The position numbers and the translations under genes were made by a program. The notes beneath the pieces are model-generated. The model saw nothing but the letters and a program-made list of their open reading frames with translations, made no database searches and was not told the origin of the DNA. A stretch of 64,000 bases of DNA, taken from sequence record PZ452578.1; one strand, written 5' to 3'. The stretch is from a phage. Shown here piece by piece: positions 41,169-61,987 of this stretch (positions are counted from its first letter, which is position 1; each line of letters begins with the position of its first letter).

Positions 41169-41355
41169 TATCTAAAATGTTGAAGTTAAAAGATACGGCC
41201 CAATCAGTGCAGACCGTAACCTTTTTAATACAATTATCTTCAACCTCTAGTGGTTCAAACCAATATTCAATAATTTCTTTATGCCCAATATCATCTTTTA
41301 CTTCACATTCAAAATGCTGACTCATCATAACATTTTTAAATTCATCAAAAGTCAT
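41092..41355 (-). CDS. hypothetical protein (87 aa)
   Basis: ORF track. Confidence 0.55.
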   Translation of the reverse strand: MTFDEFKNVMMSQHFECEVKDDIGHKEIIEYWFEPLEVEDNCIKKVTVCTDWAVSFNFNILDNDTPKSLQDMAVSCIKDAYCEVFDI

Positions 41356-42371
41356 TGTGTTGCCTCTACATATAACTGATTTGCATATTGAATAAGTGCT
41401 TCGCGATCAGAATCAGTGATGTCTGGAATTGCATTAATGTATTCTTCCATCAATGTCTGAAGAGATTGAACTTCAACTTCTTCACTGTCATCTGACTCGA
41501 CAGAGTTATCAATCTTTGACACAACTCGTAATGAATGCACAACTTTTTCTAGTTCAGATTCGAACTTCGTTAGATTTTTGTCTACTTCAGTTACTATAAC
41601 ACGTACTGATAGATTTGTAAAATCTTTATAGTCAATTTTTCCTTTAAATGGATAATGAATTCTACGATGCCAGGTAGTATTGTTTGGAATAAATTCCATT
41701 CGTTCTGTTTCTGTATCAAACATCCAGAACCCGCGAGGGTCATTCTCGTCACCTGCTGTTAGTGTCCATGGTGTCCCAATATATCTGACGTTTGCAGCCT
41801 CAGAAATAGTATGGAAGTGACCAGACCACACTTCTTTATAAGTCTTAAGGAAATCAGGTTCAAGACCGTGAGATTTCATTCCTTTATAAAAATAAAATCC
41901 ATTCAGTTCCCAGTGACCAACACAAAAAGAAGCAGATGAAGTTTTGATGTGTTCAAGAATTTCACCAGTATTTTCTTCACACATCCAAGGAATTAAATCA
42001 ATCAAACATCCGTCAAAATCTACTGTAGTAGGCTTATCATATACTTTAACATTAGGATATTTAGCCAAAAGCTCAGTAGAAGCATTTGGATGCATTACAT
42101 TTTTATAGTGGAGATCGTGATTTCCTACAATAGTATGTAATGTGATTCCAGCGTCGTCAAGCATTTGAACTATTTCACGGGCAAACTCCATAGTTTTATG
42201 CGTGATCGCTTTTCGTACATCAAAAATATCACCATATTGAATCCATACAGTAATTCCATTTTTCTTAGAATATTCTATCGCTTGCTTAATTCCATCAATT
42301 TGAATACCGCGAATCCACTCATCATCGGCTTTAACGCCTAAATGCCAATCACCCAAGTTTAGTATTTTCAT
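41352..42371 (-). CDS. 47: gp47 recombination nuclease subunit (Mre11/SbcD-like)
   Basis: ORF track 339 aa; phosphoesterase motifs GDWHLG, GNHD. Confidence 0.9.
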   Translation of the reverse strand: MKILNLGDWHLGVKADDEWIRGIQIDGIKQAIEYSKKNGITVWIQYGDIFDVRKAITHKTMEFAREIVQMLDDAGITLHTIVGNHDLHYKNVMHPNASTELLAKYPNVKVYDKPTTVDFDGCLIDLIPWMCEENTGEILEHIKTSSASFCVGHWELNGFYFYKGMKSHGLEPDFLKTYKEVWSGHFHTISEAANVRYIGTPWTLTAGDENDPRGFWMFDTETERMEFIPNNTTWHRRIHYPFKGKIDYKDFTNLSVRVIVTEVDKNLTKFESELEKVVHSLRVVSKIDNSVESDDSEEVEVQSLQTLMEEYINAIPDITDSDREALIQYANQLYVEATQ

Positions 42372-42972
42372 GGTGTCTTTTCCATCCTAATTTAGCTGCT
42401 TTTGAAACTAGTTCTTTAATTTTTCCTTTTGTCCATTCAGGACCAGGAGGTTCATGACATAACATTTGCTTAACTCCGTTATTATACCATTTTTTACCTT
42501 TATTATGTGATGAAGCTTTAAATTTATTTGACCTTCCTTTTACATAACCTTCTGGAATATACGGTAAAAAGGCAGATTTTCCTGTTAATGGGTCATGTGA
42601 ATGTATGTTTCCTTTACAATTATGAGAACCATATAATGGATGATTTTGTCCTTTAATATCTCTTCCAAATGAACCTTTTGGAGCAGCATATGACATATTA
42701 AAGAATAATGGATTTTTAACCGCATCATGCAAACGTTGATAATATAGCTCGCATTTAATAGCTTCTTCGCGCGTATCAAATTCATCTAAAATGCATGAAT
42801 CAAATAAATGTGGGTTATCTGAAAGTTCTTCATTATAAATTTTCTTATACTTTTTAGATAAAACTGATCCATGATATCCGGCTAAATGCCTATCTAAAGA
42901 TGTAGATCCAATATAAAAAGGAGGAAGTTTATCTCCACTATATATTGTTAAATAAGTTATATATTTTTTCAT
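42349..42972 (-). CDS. GIY-YIG homing endonuclease (seg-like)
   Basis: ORF track 207 aa; N-terminal YITYLTIYSGD...FYIGSTS motif; 3' end overlaps gene 47 start. Confidence 0.7.
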   Translation of the reverse strand: MKKYITYLTIYSGDKLPPFYIGSTSLDRHLAGYHGSVLSKKYKKIYNEELSDNPHLFDSCILDEFDTREEAIKCELYYQRLHDAVKNPLFFNMSYAAPKGSFGRDIKGQNHPLYGSHNCKGNIHSHDPLTGKSAFLPYIPEGYVKGRSNKFKASSHNKGKKWYNNGVKQMLCHEPPGPEWTKGKIKELVSKAAKLGWKRHHENTKLG

Positions 42973-43133: not shown

Positions 43134-43150
43134 AAGGGCCGAAGCCCTTT
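43133..43150 (-). other. CUUCGG RNA hairpin at alpha-gt 3' end
   Basis: aaagggc-cgaa-gcccttt inverted repeat. Confidence 0.5.
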
Positions 43151-44351
43151 ATTTTGTAATAATGTCAAACTGTTCTTTAAAGCAGAAGCTTGAATCTTGA
43201 TGCTGATACAAAAATTCATAAGCTTTTTCGCGTTCACGGTCATAAAGAGTTCGGTTAGATGACAGTTCTTTAATACGTTCAAATGTTGATTCCATGTCAT
43301 TTTCATCAAACCAAATGATACCGCTATCATGCGAAGTCAAAGGAGTATTATCAACACGGAATTTTAAATTTTCGCCCGTAGATTTCCAAAATACCGGAAT
43401 TGTTCCACATGCACCAAGCTCGAGATGAGTATATTCTAAAGAACGTTGTAGATATTTTTTGTCCAACTTACTCAGCTGATAACCAAAACCGGATTTACTC
43501 ATACGTTCAAGCATTTCGCTATTTACATAACGGTCAAGAATTTGCGTTGGCAAATTAGGAGCAATTTTAATTTGGTCTACTTGATGAAGACGATAATACT
43601 CGTATGGAATTCCTTTTTCTTTAATAGGAATGAACGCTGGAGAACGTTCCAGACCTTCCATAATAGTACTTAGTCCTGCAGGTTTAAGATATTTTTCATG
43701 AAAATCAAACATCTGATAAAAACCTTTCCATGTAGTCGTACGACCAATCCAACGGTTGATATTCATGTTAATTTCAGAAACATCTTTCCAGTAGGTTGAC
43801 CGAACCTTCGCAATATCCATAGGAGGCTGAAAGTTATATACGGTCGGTGCTTCTTCAATATCATCAAACAGAGAAACTGTTTCAGGATACCATTCTTTCA
43901 TCAGAACTTTATTAAAATCGCCATTATCAGAATGACTAAAAATAACATCAGCTCGACGAACAGTTTCTTCTAATCCCAAATTTCGACGCAAAGAAAGAGA
44001 AGAATGGTCATGTTGATAAACTACAACACGAACAGAAGGTTTAATATTATCAATAATTTTTTTATAGTTATTAATGGTGTCTTCTTCTACTGAAGTAGCA
44101 GGAACTGAATTGATAATTAGAATATCACAATCATTTACCAGCTTAAGTGTTTTATCGTATTCTTTTGCCAATAAAACTGGAATTGAAAATGACTTATAAT
44201 CATGCGCGCAATTACGAGTAAATGATTTATCTTTAGCATAAACCAAAATTACTTCATGACCATTTTTAATAAACCAATCACGTTGCTCGAGTGAGAATTT
44301 TGTTACACCACAACCTTCAAGACCTCGAGCCATAAAAATACATACTTTCAT
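43149..44351 (-). CDS. a-gt: alpha-glucosyltransferase (HMC-DNA)
   Basis: ORF track 400 aa; N-terminus MKVCIFMARGLEGCGVTKFSLEQ matches T4 a-gt. Confidence 0.9.
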   Translation of the reverse strand: MKVCIFMARGLEGCGVTKFSLEQRDWFIKNGHEVILVYAKDKSFTRNCAHDYKSFSIPVLLAKEYDKTLKLVNDCDILIINSVPATSVEEDTINNYKKIIDNIKPSVRVVVYQHDHSSLSLRRNLGLEETVRRADVIFSHSDNGDFNKVLMKEWYPETVSLFDDIEEAPTVYNFQPPMDIAKVRSTYWKDVSEINMNINRWIGRTTTWKGFYQMFDFHEKYLKPAGLSTIMEGLERSPAFIPIKEKGIPYEYYRLHQVDQIKIAPNLPTQILDRYVNSEMLERMSKSGFGYQLSKLDKKYLQRSLEYTHLELGACGTIPVFWKSTGENLKFRVDNTPLTSHDSGIIWFDENDMESTFERIKELSSNRTLYDREREKAYEFLYQHQDSSFCFKEQFDIITK

Positions 44352-58297: not shown

Positions 58298-58335
58298 ATA
58301 GTACCACAGAGGAACGGTCTTGTAAACAACTAAAA
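58298..58335 (-). promoter_or_regulatory. T4-type early promoter with conserved leader (twin of 4590..4635)
   Basis: Plus atagta 58298-58303, gtaaac 58322-58327. Confidence 0.7.
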
Positions 58336-58644
58336 GAAACTTCTTTCACAATTTTTTCCACTGAACCAAGCGCTCACTGCTTTCTTAGTCTCAGGAGCAG
58401 TGTTATCCATAAACCATTCAAAGGCAGCCTTTTTATGATTCTGGAGGGCTTCTCGGGCTTTAATCTGCTCACGGTCTATTAACACTAACATATGAGCCTT
58501 TCTTGTCACCATGGGCTTCTTATGATTTTTTGAATACTCCCAATCATTTGTCCATCGCATCGTTGTTGCGAATTGAAGTACAGCTTCTTTAATTTTAGTT
58601 TCGTAAATTTCACGAGCCTTTGAGTATAACATCATTACCTCCAT
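58330..58644 (-). CDS. hypothetical protein (104 aa)
   Basis: ORF track. Confidence 0.6.
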   Translation of the reverse strand: MEVMMLYSKAREIYETKIKEAVLQFATTMRWTNDWEYSKNHKKPMVTRKAHMLVLIDREQIKAREALQNHKKAAFEWFMDNTAPETKKAVSAWFSGKNCERSFF

Positions 58645-58714
58645 TTACCAGTTTAATTCTAGTCATCTTTTTAATGGCAGTCCATATAATCTATTTCTGA
58701 ACTGCCTTTTTGTC

Positions 58715-59434
58715 TTACGATTCTTCTAAATGTCTTTTCTGAAAAGTTGATACCATACTACGATAAGGTTCATTTGGATACCCGTGTTTTATAGCTTCCT
58801 TTGTAAATTTTCTCCATCCGTATTTAGTTTCTTTCCAAAGCTCGAATAATTCATCTTCATACTGCCATATAGTTAAATGAGAACGCTTTGCAGCTTTAAT
58901 TCCATTAATGTGCTTTTCTTTTACTGTAGGATTGCTTAGTGTCTTTTTAATAATATTACTAACTTTTCTAACAAAAGCTGGGTCCTTATATCGTTGTGAA
59001 GTTTTTATTGAAGTGTTTAATTTAGCTTCCGGCGTGGATGTGACCTCTTTCATCTTTTTCTTCATATGCTCTATATGATTAGGATTTTTCCATAAATTTA
59101 TAGAATGCTTTTTACATTTTATCCTAGTTTCATCTGCAACCTTTCCTCCTTCACCCCCATATGACAGGTTAACGCAGTTTTTTCCATATTTCAATTTACC
59201 TGCCATGATATATAATATTTCGGCTTGTACCATTTTATCATAATTATCAAAAACTTCTAAAACCGTTTTTGATAATATATGGTCATTTGACACTTTTACA
59301 CGTTCTATATAATTTCCACTACCAACATACGAATCATTGATGTTATTAGTTATATGTCGACCATAATAGTATTTCTTAATACCTGTCTTTAAATTTAATA
59401 TTTCAGTTTTATAGATAGTAAAATATTTTTTCAT
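58715..59434 (-). CDS. putative GIY-YIG-family homing endonuclease (239 aa)
   Basis: ORF track; N-terminal TIYK...KYYYG pattern and Lys-rich C-terminal repeats; weaker match than the 42349 gene. Confidence 0.5.
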   Translation of the reverse strand: MKKYFTIYKTEILNLKTGIKKYYYGRHITNNINDSYVGSGNYIERVKVSNDHILSKTVLEVFDNYDKMVQAEILYIMAGKLKYGKNCVNLSYGGEGGKVADETRIKCKKHSINLWKNPNHIEHMKKKMKEVTSTPEAKLNTSIKTSQRYKDPAFVRKVSNIIKKTLSNPTVKEKHINGIKAAKRSHLTIWQYEDELFELWKETKYGWRKFTKEAIKHGYPNEPYRSMVSTFQKRHLEES

Positions 59435-60399
59435 TTTAATAATACCGTTTCAGCGATTTCTTCCCAACCGTTTTTGTCGGTCATAATAAAGTCAGCAAGA
59501 TAAAGAGCAGTACGCAGTGAAACATTACGTAAACGATTAACATTGACTTTCATCCATGATAATGCTTTATAAGTTTCTTCATCAGAAAGACCGCGTTTTT
59601 GCATCATGTCAGTTGAAAGAATAACATCTTCAACCCTGACCATAATTTCTTCATTAGTGTGAACACCCAAATCTAAATAAACTGAGCGGGACACTAATGC
59701 TTGTAAATGTGGAGCAAGTTTAGTACCACGGTCTAATTCACGGTCAATGTCAACGTTTGTGATAAAAACAATTGTTCCTTTAAATTCAAACTCACGGTCA
59801 ATGCCTTTTTCTTCTAAGTAAGAAGATGCAGTGCTCCAGCAGACTTTACGGGTCTCTCCAGTGTCCAGAGCAGCTTTCAGAAGATTAAGAATGTCCATAT
59901 CAGAGAAAACATCCACATCATCAATCAAAAGGACAGAATTCTCTTCACGATTATTCCAAAGCTGTTCATAAAGACCGATACCAGAGATTTTACCATTAAT
60001 GCTTTTATACTCAATGTATCCAATATCATTTGCTTTATTTAAAGCTTTATCTAAAGAATACGTTTTACCAATGCCTGCCGCACCAGAGATAATTAATGAA
60101 CGAATGTTTCCGTTAATAATACCATTCGTCATCATTCCCATAACATTAAATCTTTTATTAATGCGGGTTTTCATATCTTCATATGATTCTTTAACTTCTT
60201 CAACTTTTACACCATCATATGAAATGTCTGATTTGTAAACCCAAACACCGCGACGCTTACCGTCAATTTCAACAAAAACTTTACCATCTCCTTGTGCATC
60301 TACCGGAGCATTATCAGGGAACCACTCACCTAAGAGTTCAAAAGTTCCAGAGATTTCTTTACCGAAGTAGATACCCTTATTGATAGTTACAGTTTTCAT
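59431..60399 (-). CDS. P-loop NTPase (AAA+-like), 323 aa
   Basis: ATG at 60399 with GGAG RBS; Walker A GAAGIGKT, Walker B VLLIDDVD. Confidence 0.7.
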   Translation of the reverse strand: MKTVTINKGIYFGKEISGTFELLGEWFPDNAPVDAQGDGKVFVEIDGKRRGVWVYKSDISYDGVKVEEVKESYEDMKTRINKRFNVMGMMTNGIINGNIRSLIISGAAGIGKTYSLDKALNKANDIGYIEYKSINGKISGIGLYEQLWNNREENSVLLIDDVDVFSDMDILNLLKAALDTGETRKVCWSTASSYLEEKGIDREFEFKGTIVFITNVDIDRELDRGTKLAPHLQALVSRSVYLDLGVHTNEEIMVRVEDVILSTDMMQKRGLSDEETYKALSWMKVNVNRLRNVSLRTALYLADFIMTDKNGWEEIAETVLLK

Positions 60400-60436
60400 T
60401 TTATTCTCCAAATCTGTATCAGTAGTTGATAGTTGT

Positions 60437-60480
60437 ATAGTACCATAAAGCTTTATGCTTGTAAACAGTTTTGTGAAAAA
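60437..60480 (-). promoter_or_regulatory. T4-type early promoter with conserved leader
   Basis: Plus atagta 60437-60442, gtaaac 60461-60466. Confidence 0.7.
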
Positions 60481-60484
60481 ATTT

Positions 60485-60514
60485 TGAAATAAAAAGGGAG
60501 CCCGAAGGCTCCCT
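60485..60514 (-). terminator. Intrinsic terminator (GGGAGCC-UUCG-GGCUCCC + U-run)
   Basis: Inverted repeat 60496-60513 with A-run 60491-60495 on plus. Confidence 0.7.
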
Positions 60515-60515
60515 A

Positions 60516-61529
60516 TCATTTATAATAACTTCGGTGGTTTTCAAGATAGACCTTCTCAAGGAAGTCATCCCAGAAACTCATGTCTACTTTTTGCTGCATA
60601 CCGTTCTTAGAAGCTTCAGTAGATGCTGCTTCTACTTGATCGACCACATCTTCCAAAAACTCTTGAACCGTTTTAAATGGATGTTTACCCAACTTCACGT
60701 CGAGAATAAATGGAGCATCTTGGAGTGGATAAACCAAGTCACCAGTTTTGTAAATTTCCAACAGTTGGAGTCCACCACGGCAAGCATGACTCAGAGCTTT
60801 CCAGTCAATACCTTCATTGGCTTCGGCCTTACGAGCACGTTCACCATATTCAGCATCTAATTTGTTCAGTGACTGCTTAAGCTCAATAAGAGAAAGCGTT
60901 GTCTGATATTTACGACCCAACACTGTATAAAACGTTTGTGGGCCGGTTTTCTCATGATTATGGAACACCCATTCACAGAATTCATTCTTTGGAAGACGAT
61001 GCTTAATATCTTCAACTTTAGTACGACGCTGCTTAATAGAACCATCTTCTTGGTAATCAACCCATTGCTCAGGGATTTGATTAACTACTTTCAATACATC
61101 ACGTAATGCAGCCAAACGAGAACCTTTGACACCGTATTTAGAAGCTTGCTTGCGGACATATCCTAAATATGATTTCATATTAGTCGTATAAAAACGAGAA
61201 CGGTTGTCTTGAATAAACTTCCACACATCAGGTAAATCAGATTTAACCACTAGTTCAGGTGGAGTATGAAGCATATCTAATGCTACAGTTTCACCATCTG
61301 CTGCTAATTTAAAGAAATATTTAAGACTGTATAGTTCATGGTCAATATCATCTTTAGTGTTTTTAGATGATGTGTTGTTAGTGTTTTTACTCATGTGCTC
61401 TTTAACATTTCCAATAAGAATATCACGAGCAGGAGGAACAAAGATTTCTTTAAAATCTACATCAGATTCTGGAGTAGAAGTTCCATAAAGATGACTACCA
61501 AAATAGCTTTTCATTACTGTTTTCATCAT
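60516..61529 (-). CDS. Pol-beta-superfamily nucleotidyltransferase (337 aa)
   Basis: ORF track; N-terminal motif YFGSHLYGTSTPESDVDF (GS-x9-DxD). Confidence 0.7.
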   Translation of the reverse strand: MMKTVMKSYFGSHLYGTSTPESDVDFKEIFVPPARDILIGNVKEHMSKNTNNTSSKNTKDDIDHELYSLKYFFKLAADGETVALDMLHTPPELVVKSDLPDVWKFIQDNRSRFYTTNMKSYLGYVRKQASKYGVKGSRLAALRDVLKVVNQIPEQWVDYQEDGSIKQRRTKVEDIKHRLPKNEFCEWVFHNHEKTGPQTFYTVLGRKYQTTLSLIELKQSLNKLDAEYGERARKAEANEGIDWKALSHACRGGLQLLEIYKTGDLVYPLQDAPFILDVKLGKHPFKTVQEFLEDVVDQVEAASTEASKNGMQQKVDMSFWDDFLEKVYLENHRSYYK

Positions 61530-61987
61530 TCAGCCTTATATTCAATAACAGGACATACTTTAGCTTTACGAGCTTTTAAAAATTCAACGATAACCGATTT
61601 CTTGGGTTGAATAGGAGGTAAACCTTTATACGCCCTATCAATATTTTCTACGTGTAAAGCATAATCCTTTTTCCATTTATAATCTTTATATTTTTCACGC
61701 AAATGTGCAGGAATAACAAATGAACCGATAATAAGTAAAACAACCAAAAGCGCAAGTATAAATGCTGATGGAAGCAAAGTCCATAAACTACCAAAAATAA
61801 TCCAACGCTGTAGGCTTTCTGCACAAATAATTGTTAGCCCTACGAGTATAGCACATCCAAAAATAGAAACGAAAAATGTAGGAATGGCAATAGACCAAAA
61901 ATATGCGCATAGTGTCTTAGGTCGTTGCCATTCATCGTTAAACAATTTGAATAATTTATAGTGCCAAGAGTTTTCATTAATAATCAT
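61526..61987 (-). CDS. membrane protein (153 aa)
   Basis: ORF track; two or three hydrophobic helices. Confidence 0.6.
   Translation of the reverse strand: MIINENSWHYKLFKLFNDEWQRPKTLCAYFWSIAIPTFFVSIFGCAILVGLTIICAESLQRWIIFGSLWTLLPSAFILALLVVLLIIGSFVIPAHLREKYKDYKWKKDYALHVENIDRAYKGLPPIQPKKSVIVEFLKARKAKVCPVIEYKAE

Follow-up and report, generated by a model that had tools for sequence, protein, structure and literature searches.

Free-standing homing endonucleases typically adjoin and cut conserved genes (Edgell review, PMC2988022), and those known usually make their cut at a distance of hundreds of base pairs or more from the gene that encodes them (PMC2988022). Among the Seg proteins of phage T4, SegA, B, C, E and F are listed as active (PMC2988022). 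Some relatives of T4 have a further seg gene, SegH, whose target is the nrdD/nrdG region (Sandegren et al. 2005, cited in PMC2988022). The gene described here lies in a stretch of phage DNA of 64,000 nucleotides (PZ452578.1; hereafter the window), which comparison with annotated phage records identifies as a T6/RB32-type Tequatrovirus.

The gene is already known: GenBank has it as 'putative site-specific intron-like DNA endonuclease, similar to seg' (RB32ORF093c; T6 AXN58132.1). RB32ORF093c is also annotated as 'seg-like site-specific endonuclease', many records use 'homing endonuclease', and some others call the gene 'hypothetical protein'. The label 'segE', given to it in the records of RB68 and AR1, is a misnomer, because T4 segE adjoins uvsW. 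Literature searches for nrdC.9, for RB32ORF093c and for Tequatrovirus homing endonucleases together with nrdC returned no paper naming or assaying the gene. The T4 endonuclease table of the 2010 review omits it (PMC2988022), since the site is empty in T4. Our analysis indicates that the product of the 239-aa ORF is very probably a homing endonuclease of the T4 Seg family that is free-standing (intron-less), with nuclease activity and homing attributed by analogy.

The gene, its copies and its expression signals

An uninterrupted ORF of 239 codons, with an ATG start and a TAA stop, occupies positions 58715-59434 of the minus strand, exactly where the original prediction had put a 239-aa protein. 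The siting right behind an ATPase/nucleotidyltransferase pair was borne out as well: the local order on the minus strand is nrdC.11, nrdC.10, the 239-aa ORF, nrdC.9 and nrdC.8, with nrdC.11 (60516-61529) coding for an RlaP-type nucleotidyltransferase. The ATG of the ORF overlaps the stop codon of nrdC.10 (ATGA, in ...AAAATGA...). The two adjoining genes and a hairpin next to them are as follows.

58715-59434, minus strand: probable Seg-like free-standing homing endonuclease gene, 239 aa plus stop (ORF listing; copies in annotated records)
59431-60399, minus strand: nrdC.10, gene for an AAA-type ATPase of 322 aa, counted from the start that its relatives are annotated with (matches to Pfam AAA_14 and related families; T4T, T6 and RB6 annotations)
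58676-58706, minus strand: conserved RNA hairpin GGCAGUUCA...UGGACUGCC, in the interval between the stop codon of the endonuclease gene and nrdC.9 (fold -17 kcal/mol, z -3.7)

In the mechanical ORF list nrdC.10 begins at 60519 (window 59431-60519, 362 aa), inside a terminator hairpin and overlapping nrdC.11. Annotated relatives all start the gene 40 codons later (MKTVTINKG..., 60399, 322 aa), and PHROG_1250 aligns from residue 41.

By megablast the endonuclease ORF is found in 67 phage records at 96.6-99.9% nucleotide identity, as a single copy per genome and always beside nrdC.10. The protein of Shigella phages ESh32 and ESh34 is 100% identical to that of the window, and those of T6, RB14, RB32 and RB51 are about 98% (97.9-98.3%) identical; the window protein matches PHROG_314 'homing endonuclease' (PHROGs, E 4e-30). 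Seven full copies were compared; between the more diverged pairs pS rises to 0.108, with pN/pS of 0.07-0.24. The differences are mostly synonymous, and the protein is therefore under purifying selection. Some copies are nevertheless frameshifted: those of RB3 and RB10 have 727 nt instead of 720 (7 extra bases), the RB3 product being two fragments in UniProt, and those of AR1 and G157lw have 719 nt, with one base missing. As expected, such copies fit the decay cycle of homing genes. The RB3 and AR1 genes are annotated as truncated or split products.

A search for a T4 late promoter (TATAAATA) near the endonuclease gene and for a Shine-Dalgarno sequence before the ORF found neither. Folding of the 5' region of the ORF revealed no unusual structure. 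A sigma-70-like match at 59467-59439 was rejected as the promoter of the gene, because transcription would begin at or after the ATG. Farther upstream, a strong terminator-like hairpin for both strands lies between nrdC.11 and nrdC.10 (60495-60514; 8-bp stem with 6 GC pairs, then a T-run) and is followed by sigma-70-like sites. The endonuclease gene is probably co-transcribed with nrdC.10, and its expression is probably low, through read-through from nrdC.10 and translational coupling via the ATGA overlap. At the other end of the gene, the hairpin at 58676-58706 has a 9-bp stem with no U-run after it and is identical in 15 of 15 aligned genomes. Genomes with the gene (carriers) and those without it (empty genomes) both have this hairpin, which is therefore part of the recipient backbone, not of the mobile segment. 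It may serve as an element for processing or stability.

A Seg-type catalytic domain with a helical C-terminal part

The protein divides into three parts, which correspond to the following stretches of the gene.

59141-59434, minus strand: GIY-YIG catalytic domain, residues 1-98 (modelled strands and helices)
58877-59140, minus strand: Lys-rich all-helical linker, residues 99-186, five helices (modelled helices 101-185; 22 Lys+Arg in 88 residues)
58718-58876, minus strand: C-terminal three-helix domain, residues 187-239 (model)

An exhaustive HMMER search identified 1488 relatives at E<=1e-3, whereas a word-indexed protein search gave only 2. The family alignment was built from the query and 105 relatives (106 sequences). 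Columns G25, Y36, G38, G40, E72 and N89 are invariant in it, and Y8, Y23, H27, T29, D34, S39, G93 and G94 are conserved in more than 90% of the sequences. Pfam models match many of these 106 family members: PF19835 (SegE_GIY-YIG) 48, PF01541 (GIY-YIG) 36 and NUMOD3 45. Neither PF01541 nor PF19835 matched the full 239-aa protein or its residues 1-99, even at E<=10; for reference, T4 SegB scores 28.3 bits against a cut-off of 22.6. As the Pfam models are not matched directly, membership rests on transitive, profile and structural evidence.

BLASTP of the 239-aa query against the T4 Seg proteins (Seg and Tev sequences were taken from the T4T record) aligned SegB at E 2.6e-12, SegF at 8e-9, SegE at 2e-8, SegA at 3e-7, SegC at 2e-6 and SegD at 8e-6. 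The family profile scores SegB at 189 bits, I-TevII at 43 and I-TevI at 31, and its best match in the PDB is the catalytic domain of I-TevI. Against full-length I-TevI, hhalign gave a probability of 93% and paired Y8, Y23-G25, E72 and N89 with I-TevI Y6, Y17-G19, E75 and N90, respectively. The structure was modelled by AlphaFold with the 106-sequence alignment (the single-sequence version reached a pLDDT of only 41.5), and Foldseek of viral models (BFVD) returned Seg-like or GIY-YIG homing endonucleases. The figures tabulated for comparison proteins were 7.5 for I-TevI, 6.7 for PD-T4-3 and 5.0 each for the UvrC N-domain, T4 EndoII and Eco29kI. Foldseek of the model against the PDB gave nothing significant, and NCBIfam contained no match for the protein. 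Pfam matches to GerD and CHDCT2 (whole protein and each half) were rejected as being at chance level, as was a PI4-kinase match at E 0.95 in a single-sequence phmmer search of the PDB, which we regard as noise.

In the model, the catalytic domain consists of strands 4-14 (with TIY), 20-29 (with YYG) and 52-62 and of helices 41-48 and 65-86, the latter carrying E72; N89 and G93-G94 come after it, and H27, T29, D34, Y36 and G38-S39-G40 are loop residues. The three strands form an antiparallel sheet with flanking helices, as in the GIY-YIG fold. The fold of the 239-aa protein is thus GIY-YIG. The original prediction of a GIY-YIG-like endonuclease, which was to be given up if neither profiles nor structure prediction detected the fold, is supported by the Seg BLASTP matches, the profile, the I-TevI alignment and the viral-model Foldseek matches.

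The N-terminal pattern that had been proposed, TIYK-x11-YYYG, is present as T6-I7-Y8-K9 ... Y22-Y23-Y24-G25, although 12 residues and not 11 separate its halves. The GIY motif corresponds to T6-I7-Y8 on strand 4-14 (Y8 in 104 of 106 sequences; paired with I-TevI I5-Y6), and the YIG motif to Y23-Y24-G25 on strand 20-29 (Y23 in 105 and G25 in all 106; paired with I-TevI Y17-V18-G19). The spacing from GIY to YIG is 14 residues, 4 longer than in T4 SegA-E. YYG 23-25 and YVG 36-38, a pair with canonical-looking spacing, was considered as GIY and YIG and rejected, as the profile, hhalign and the modelled strands place the motifs at T6-Y8 and Y23-G25. The catalytic, metal-binding Glu of the superfamily corresponds to E72, and the Asn after the Glu helix to N89; both occur in 106 of 106 sequences and pair with I-TevI E75 and N90. 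No invariant Arg stands at the position of I-TevI Arg27 (R26 is K/R in 48 of 106 sequences, R45 in 53). H27 is near-invariant in the family, with His in 104 sequences and Arg in the remaining 2, and the same pattern is seen in T4 SegA-E. An HMM alignment gives the signature common to the T4 Segs as Y-x-Y ... Y-[IY]-G-x-H-x-T-x-x-[LI]-[ND]-D-x-Y-x-G-S-G ... E ... N-[LIM] ... G-G-x-G-G. On all testable features except the Pfam thresholds and the Arg position, the protein belongs to the Seg branch of GIY-YIG.

The C-terminal part is Lys-rich, as had been noticed from the sequence: Lys accounts for 37 of the 239 residues of the protein, and 18 of these lie within the 88 residues 99-186. The accompanying claim of NUMOD-like repeats stands in part. 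The NUMOD3 stretches of relatives (45 of 106 carry NUMOD3) align onto residues 98-147, which indirectly suggests that the linker is homologous to their NUMOD3 linkers, with a motif too degenerate for Pfam. As repeats, the three putative linker units fared less well: they have no significant mutual similarity (shuffle p 0.28-0.41), and Pfam NUMOD3 matched neither the whole protein nor its halves. Residues 187-239 are presumed from the model to be a helix-turn-helix-like DNA-binding module. The presumed layout is therefore a catalytic domain, a flexible linker and a DNA-binding domain, as in I-TevI.

Tblastn found no paralogue of the 239-aa protein in the window. Profile search identified one distant Seg-like ORF at 42349-42972 (minus strand; 207 aa; motifs FYIGS...GYHGS...E...FNMS), probably the 'first' GIY-YIG candidate to which the original prediction had added this one as the second. 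It scores 21 bits against the family profile, aligns with T4 Seg proteins, adjoins a gene 47 homologue (41352-42371) and lies downstream of a probable alpha-glucosyltransferase gene (43149-44351). It occurs in 69 phage records as 'homing endonuclease', 'HNH endonuclease' or 'hypothetical'.

Presence, absence and the recoded end of nrdC.10

Comparison among related phages, proposed together with the original prediction as a check, revealed a presence/absence polymorphism. A query of 2.8 kb spanning nrdC.8-nrdC.10 aligned with 503 records at 95-99% identity, only 67 of which hold the ORF. About 435 close relatives, including T4, T2, wV7 and PP01, are without it and align in two pieces that skip the ORF; apart from the gene, these genomes are 97-98% identical. 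The gene is thus found in about 13% (one in eight) of T4-like coliphages, and in carriers it is always situated between nrdC.10 and nrdC.9. The boundaries of the segment are given by two features.

58718-59451, minus strand: segment without counterpart in T4-type genomes, 734 bp (alignment of the window, T4T and T6)
59431-59451, minus strand: recoded last seven codons of nrdC.10 (seven carrier and eight empty genomes aligned)

The 734 bp of the window stand against 38 bp (ACGGTTACTCTTCTGAAATAAATTCATAAGAGGCCTTC) in T4T. Homology stops after ...GAAATCGCT and restarts with the stop codon of the endonuclease gene, at TAAGACAAAAAGG (TAAGAC). From anchor to anchor, the length is 784 bp with the gene and 87-89 bp without it (12 genomes). 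A single junction type is found in 7 of 7 carriers and another in 8 of 8 empty genomes. In carriers nrdC.10 ends with GAAACGGTATTATTAAAATGA, read as GAA ACG GTA TTA TTA AAA TGA (ETVLLK*), and in empty genomes with GAGGTTACTCTTCTGAAATAA, read as GAG GTT ACT CTT CTG AAA TAA (EVTLLK*). The recoded 21 bp form the 5' edge of the non-homologous segment and contain the ATGA stop/start overlap. Together with the replaced 38 bp, they differ between carrier and empty alleles in perfect linkage with the gene, a difference that would fit self-immunity.

Among the SNPs within ±2.5 kb in the 7 carriers and 8 empty genomes, full association with the gene is confined to the junction positions; the other flank SNPs have a mean association of 0.1-0.2 and a maximum of 0.71. 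A co-conversion tract, sought as gene-linked flank SNPs within ±2.5 kb, was not found beyond the junction. With only junction SNPs linked, no co-conversion tract survives, the haplotypes of the flanks have been reshuffled thoroughly, and recent homing has left no direct trace. Where recombination is as frequent as in this population, such missing linkage neither supports nor excludes ongoing homing.

Both nrdC.10 and nrdC.11 are present with or without the endonuclease gene. The neighbouring module is thus not marked as accessory by it, contrary to what the original prediction had expected. The same distribution bears on a different role for the protein, namely that of a GIY-YIG nuclease with a benefit other than homing. 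It might degrade or nick host or competitor DNA, like T4 EndoII, or promote recombination or amplification of nearby loci, as T6 SegB reportedly does, possibly in connection with the ATPase/nucleotidyltransferase pair. Most genomes have nrdC.10 and nrdC.11 without any endonuclease, and the nearest proteins by sequence are homing-type Segs with the same three-part layout and not EndoII (E 0.004 over 44 residues). Moreover, such a role would add to homing and not replace it. We therefore consider it very improbable. The selfish mobile gene that we favour lies outside the ATPase/nucleotidyltransferase module, whose function should be interpreted without the ORF.

Other insertions are found nearby. 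Upstream of nrdC.11, the window and T6 encode a predicted membrane protein of 153 aa (61526-61987, minus strand; RB32ORF096c type), in place of which T4 and RB6 have the HNH endonuclease gene mobD. The seg-like gene and mobD assort independently: RB6 has both, T4 mobD only, T6 and the window the seg-like gene only, and wV7 neither. The gap between nrdC.11 and nrdC.10 holds extra cargo in other Tequatroviruses: a DUF4031 ORF and a 49-aa ORF in G9062, SYGD1 and probably NIC06P2, a 66-aa ORF in BECP11, and an 'ADP-ribosylase'-like ORF in T2 and SYGD1. This makes the gap a second hot spot for insertions, some 1 kb away from the endonuclease gene.

Age of the association, proposed homing and known systems

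Homologues at the same site were identified in more distant T4-like phages. A metagenomic T4-like contig (L018) carries a full ORF of 240 codons, 42-45% identical, whose start codon overlaps the stop of the nrdC.10 homologue in an identical ATGA and which is preceded by the recoded block with one base different. A third version exists in Klebsiella T4-like phages (e.g., Wolf_ER13) and in Serratia phage 92A1; in Wolf_ER13, the one genome of this version checked for context, the endonuclease gene directly follows the nrdC.10 homologue. Across the three lineages amino-acid identity is 45-52% for the endonuclease, 69-78% for nrdC.10 and 70-83% for nrdC.11. Among copies of the gene, synonymous divergence reaches about 0.1, similar to that of the flanking genes. 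Judging from these sequences, the endonuclease has long been linked to the 3' end of nrdC.10 and has been evolving faster than the genes around it. The recoded codons are the only linked polymorphism and orthologues exist in two distant lineages; the insertion is therefore old and not recent. The 'recent mobile insertion' proposed originally is at odds with the synonymous divergence of about 0.1, the lack of flank linkage beyond the junction and the 45-52% identical orthologues at the same site.

The 3' side of the insertion is far less conserved than the 5' side. The nrdC.9 gene (DUF7203; window 58330-58632 versus L018 5597-5926) is only 27% identical, compared with 69-83% for nrdC.8, nrdC.10 and nrdC.11, and the genes that follow the endonuclease gene in the Klebsiella phage are wholly different.

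Persistence at one site in three lineages could also be expected of a domesticated or decaying remnant, in which the Seg fold and DNA binding are kept and homing is lost, so that the protein is now a DNA-binding regulator or a hitch-hiker. The flank SNPs unlinked to gene presence, the non-conserved canonical Arg and the frameshifted copies would agree with this, and I-TevI, a nuclease and repressor of its own gene (PMC2988022), is a precedent. All family-invariant residues of the catalytic domain are intact, however, and pN/pS of around 0.1 extends over the nuclease domain. The His in place of Arg is also found in T4 SegA-E, of which SegA, B, C and E are listed as active (PMC2988022), and presence in only about 13% of close relatives is more in keeping with a selfish polymorphism than with a useful gene that has become fixed. 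On balance, a remnant seems unlikely.

We are equally hesitant about a related idea, that this Seg lineage is an ancient partner of nrdC.10, as opposed to a transient parasite, and may have gained a function useful to the phage. It is suggested by the site being kept to 45-52% identity in at least three T4-like lineages, by purifying selection and by translational coupling in two lineages. If true, the protein might exclude competitor ATPase/nucleotidyltransferase alleles or promote recombination or amplification of the hyperplastic region.

Returning to the homing endonuclease, we infer its nuclease activity, target site, homing itself and mode of expression, and the mechanism follows, as an analogy, what PMC2988022 describes for characterised Seg enzymes. 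In a co-infected cell, the Seg protein would bind within or close beside the 3' end of an empty nrdC.10/nrdC.9 locus and make a double-strand break in the empty allele. Recombination-dependent repair would then copy the 734-bp segment, including the recoded last seven codons of nrdC.10, from the carrier genome. Carrier genomes would be protected from cutting, since in them the empty-site sequence has given way to the insertion and the recoded 21 bp.

The old association with its 3' end points to nrdC.10 as the gene recognised by the enzyme, and among the genes here nrdC.10 is the most likely target. We predict that what the enzyme recognises includes empty-site sequence near the end of nrdC.10, because this is the sole sequence that always differs between carriers and empty genomes, and that the cut falls within about 50 bp of GCTGAGGTTACTCTTCTGAAATAAATTCATAAGAGGCC. 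Since known enzymes cut far off, a target at the junction is a guess, and any part of the locus might hold the cut.

The element is an ordinary one, of little importance beyond its correct annotation. The modest new points are the exact junction (734 bp for 38 bp) and a site kept in three diverged T4-like groups. The recoded 21-bp end of nrdC.10, which always travels with the gene, is a concrete candidate for the target site. If active, the enzyme would offer one more natural GIY-YIG specificity for engineering Tev-type nucleases.

Compared with known systems, the gene product resembles the T4 Segs in size (~200-240 aa), free-standing position and presence/absence polymorphism among T-even phages. 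Its alignment with SegB has 27% identity over 171 aa, and that with SegA reaches residue 232. It differs from them in that the nrdC.10/nrdC.9 site holds no endonuclease gene in T4, in an identity of at most 34% to any Seg, in four extra residues in the first beta-hairpin and in its degenerate NUMOD3 motifs. I-TevI (T4 td intron; PDB 1LN0/1MK0) is more remote, with ~16-19% identity, and is intron-encoded, unlike the 239-aa protein. The I-TevI helix with Arg27 is replaced here by the Seg-type loop H27...D34-x-Y36-x-GSG, and the linker has no cysteines of the I-TevI Zn finger. SegH belongs to a different locus from the nrdC.10/nrdC.9 gene and is a precedent for seg genes that are present in T-even relatives but not in T4 and were found by genome comparison. 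RB32ORF093c and T6 AXN58132.1 are the same gene, in the same position and of the same length, from which the window copy differs by 4-5 residues.
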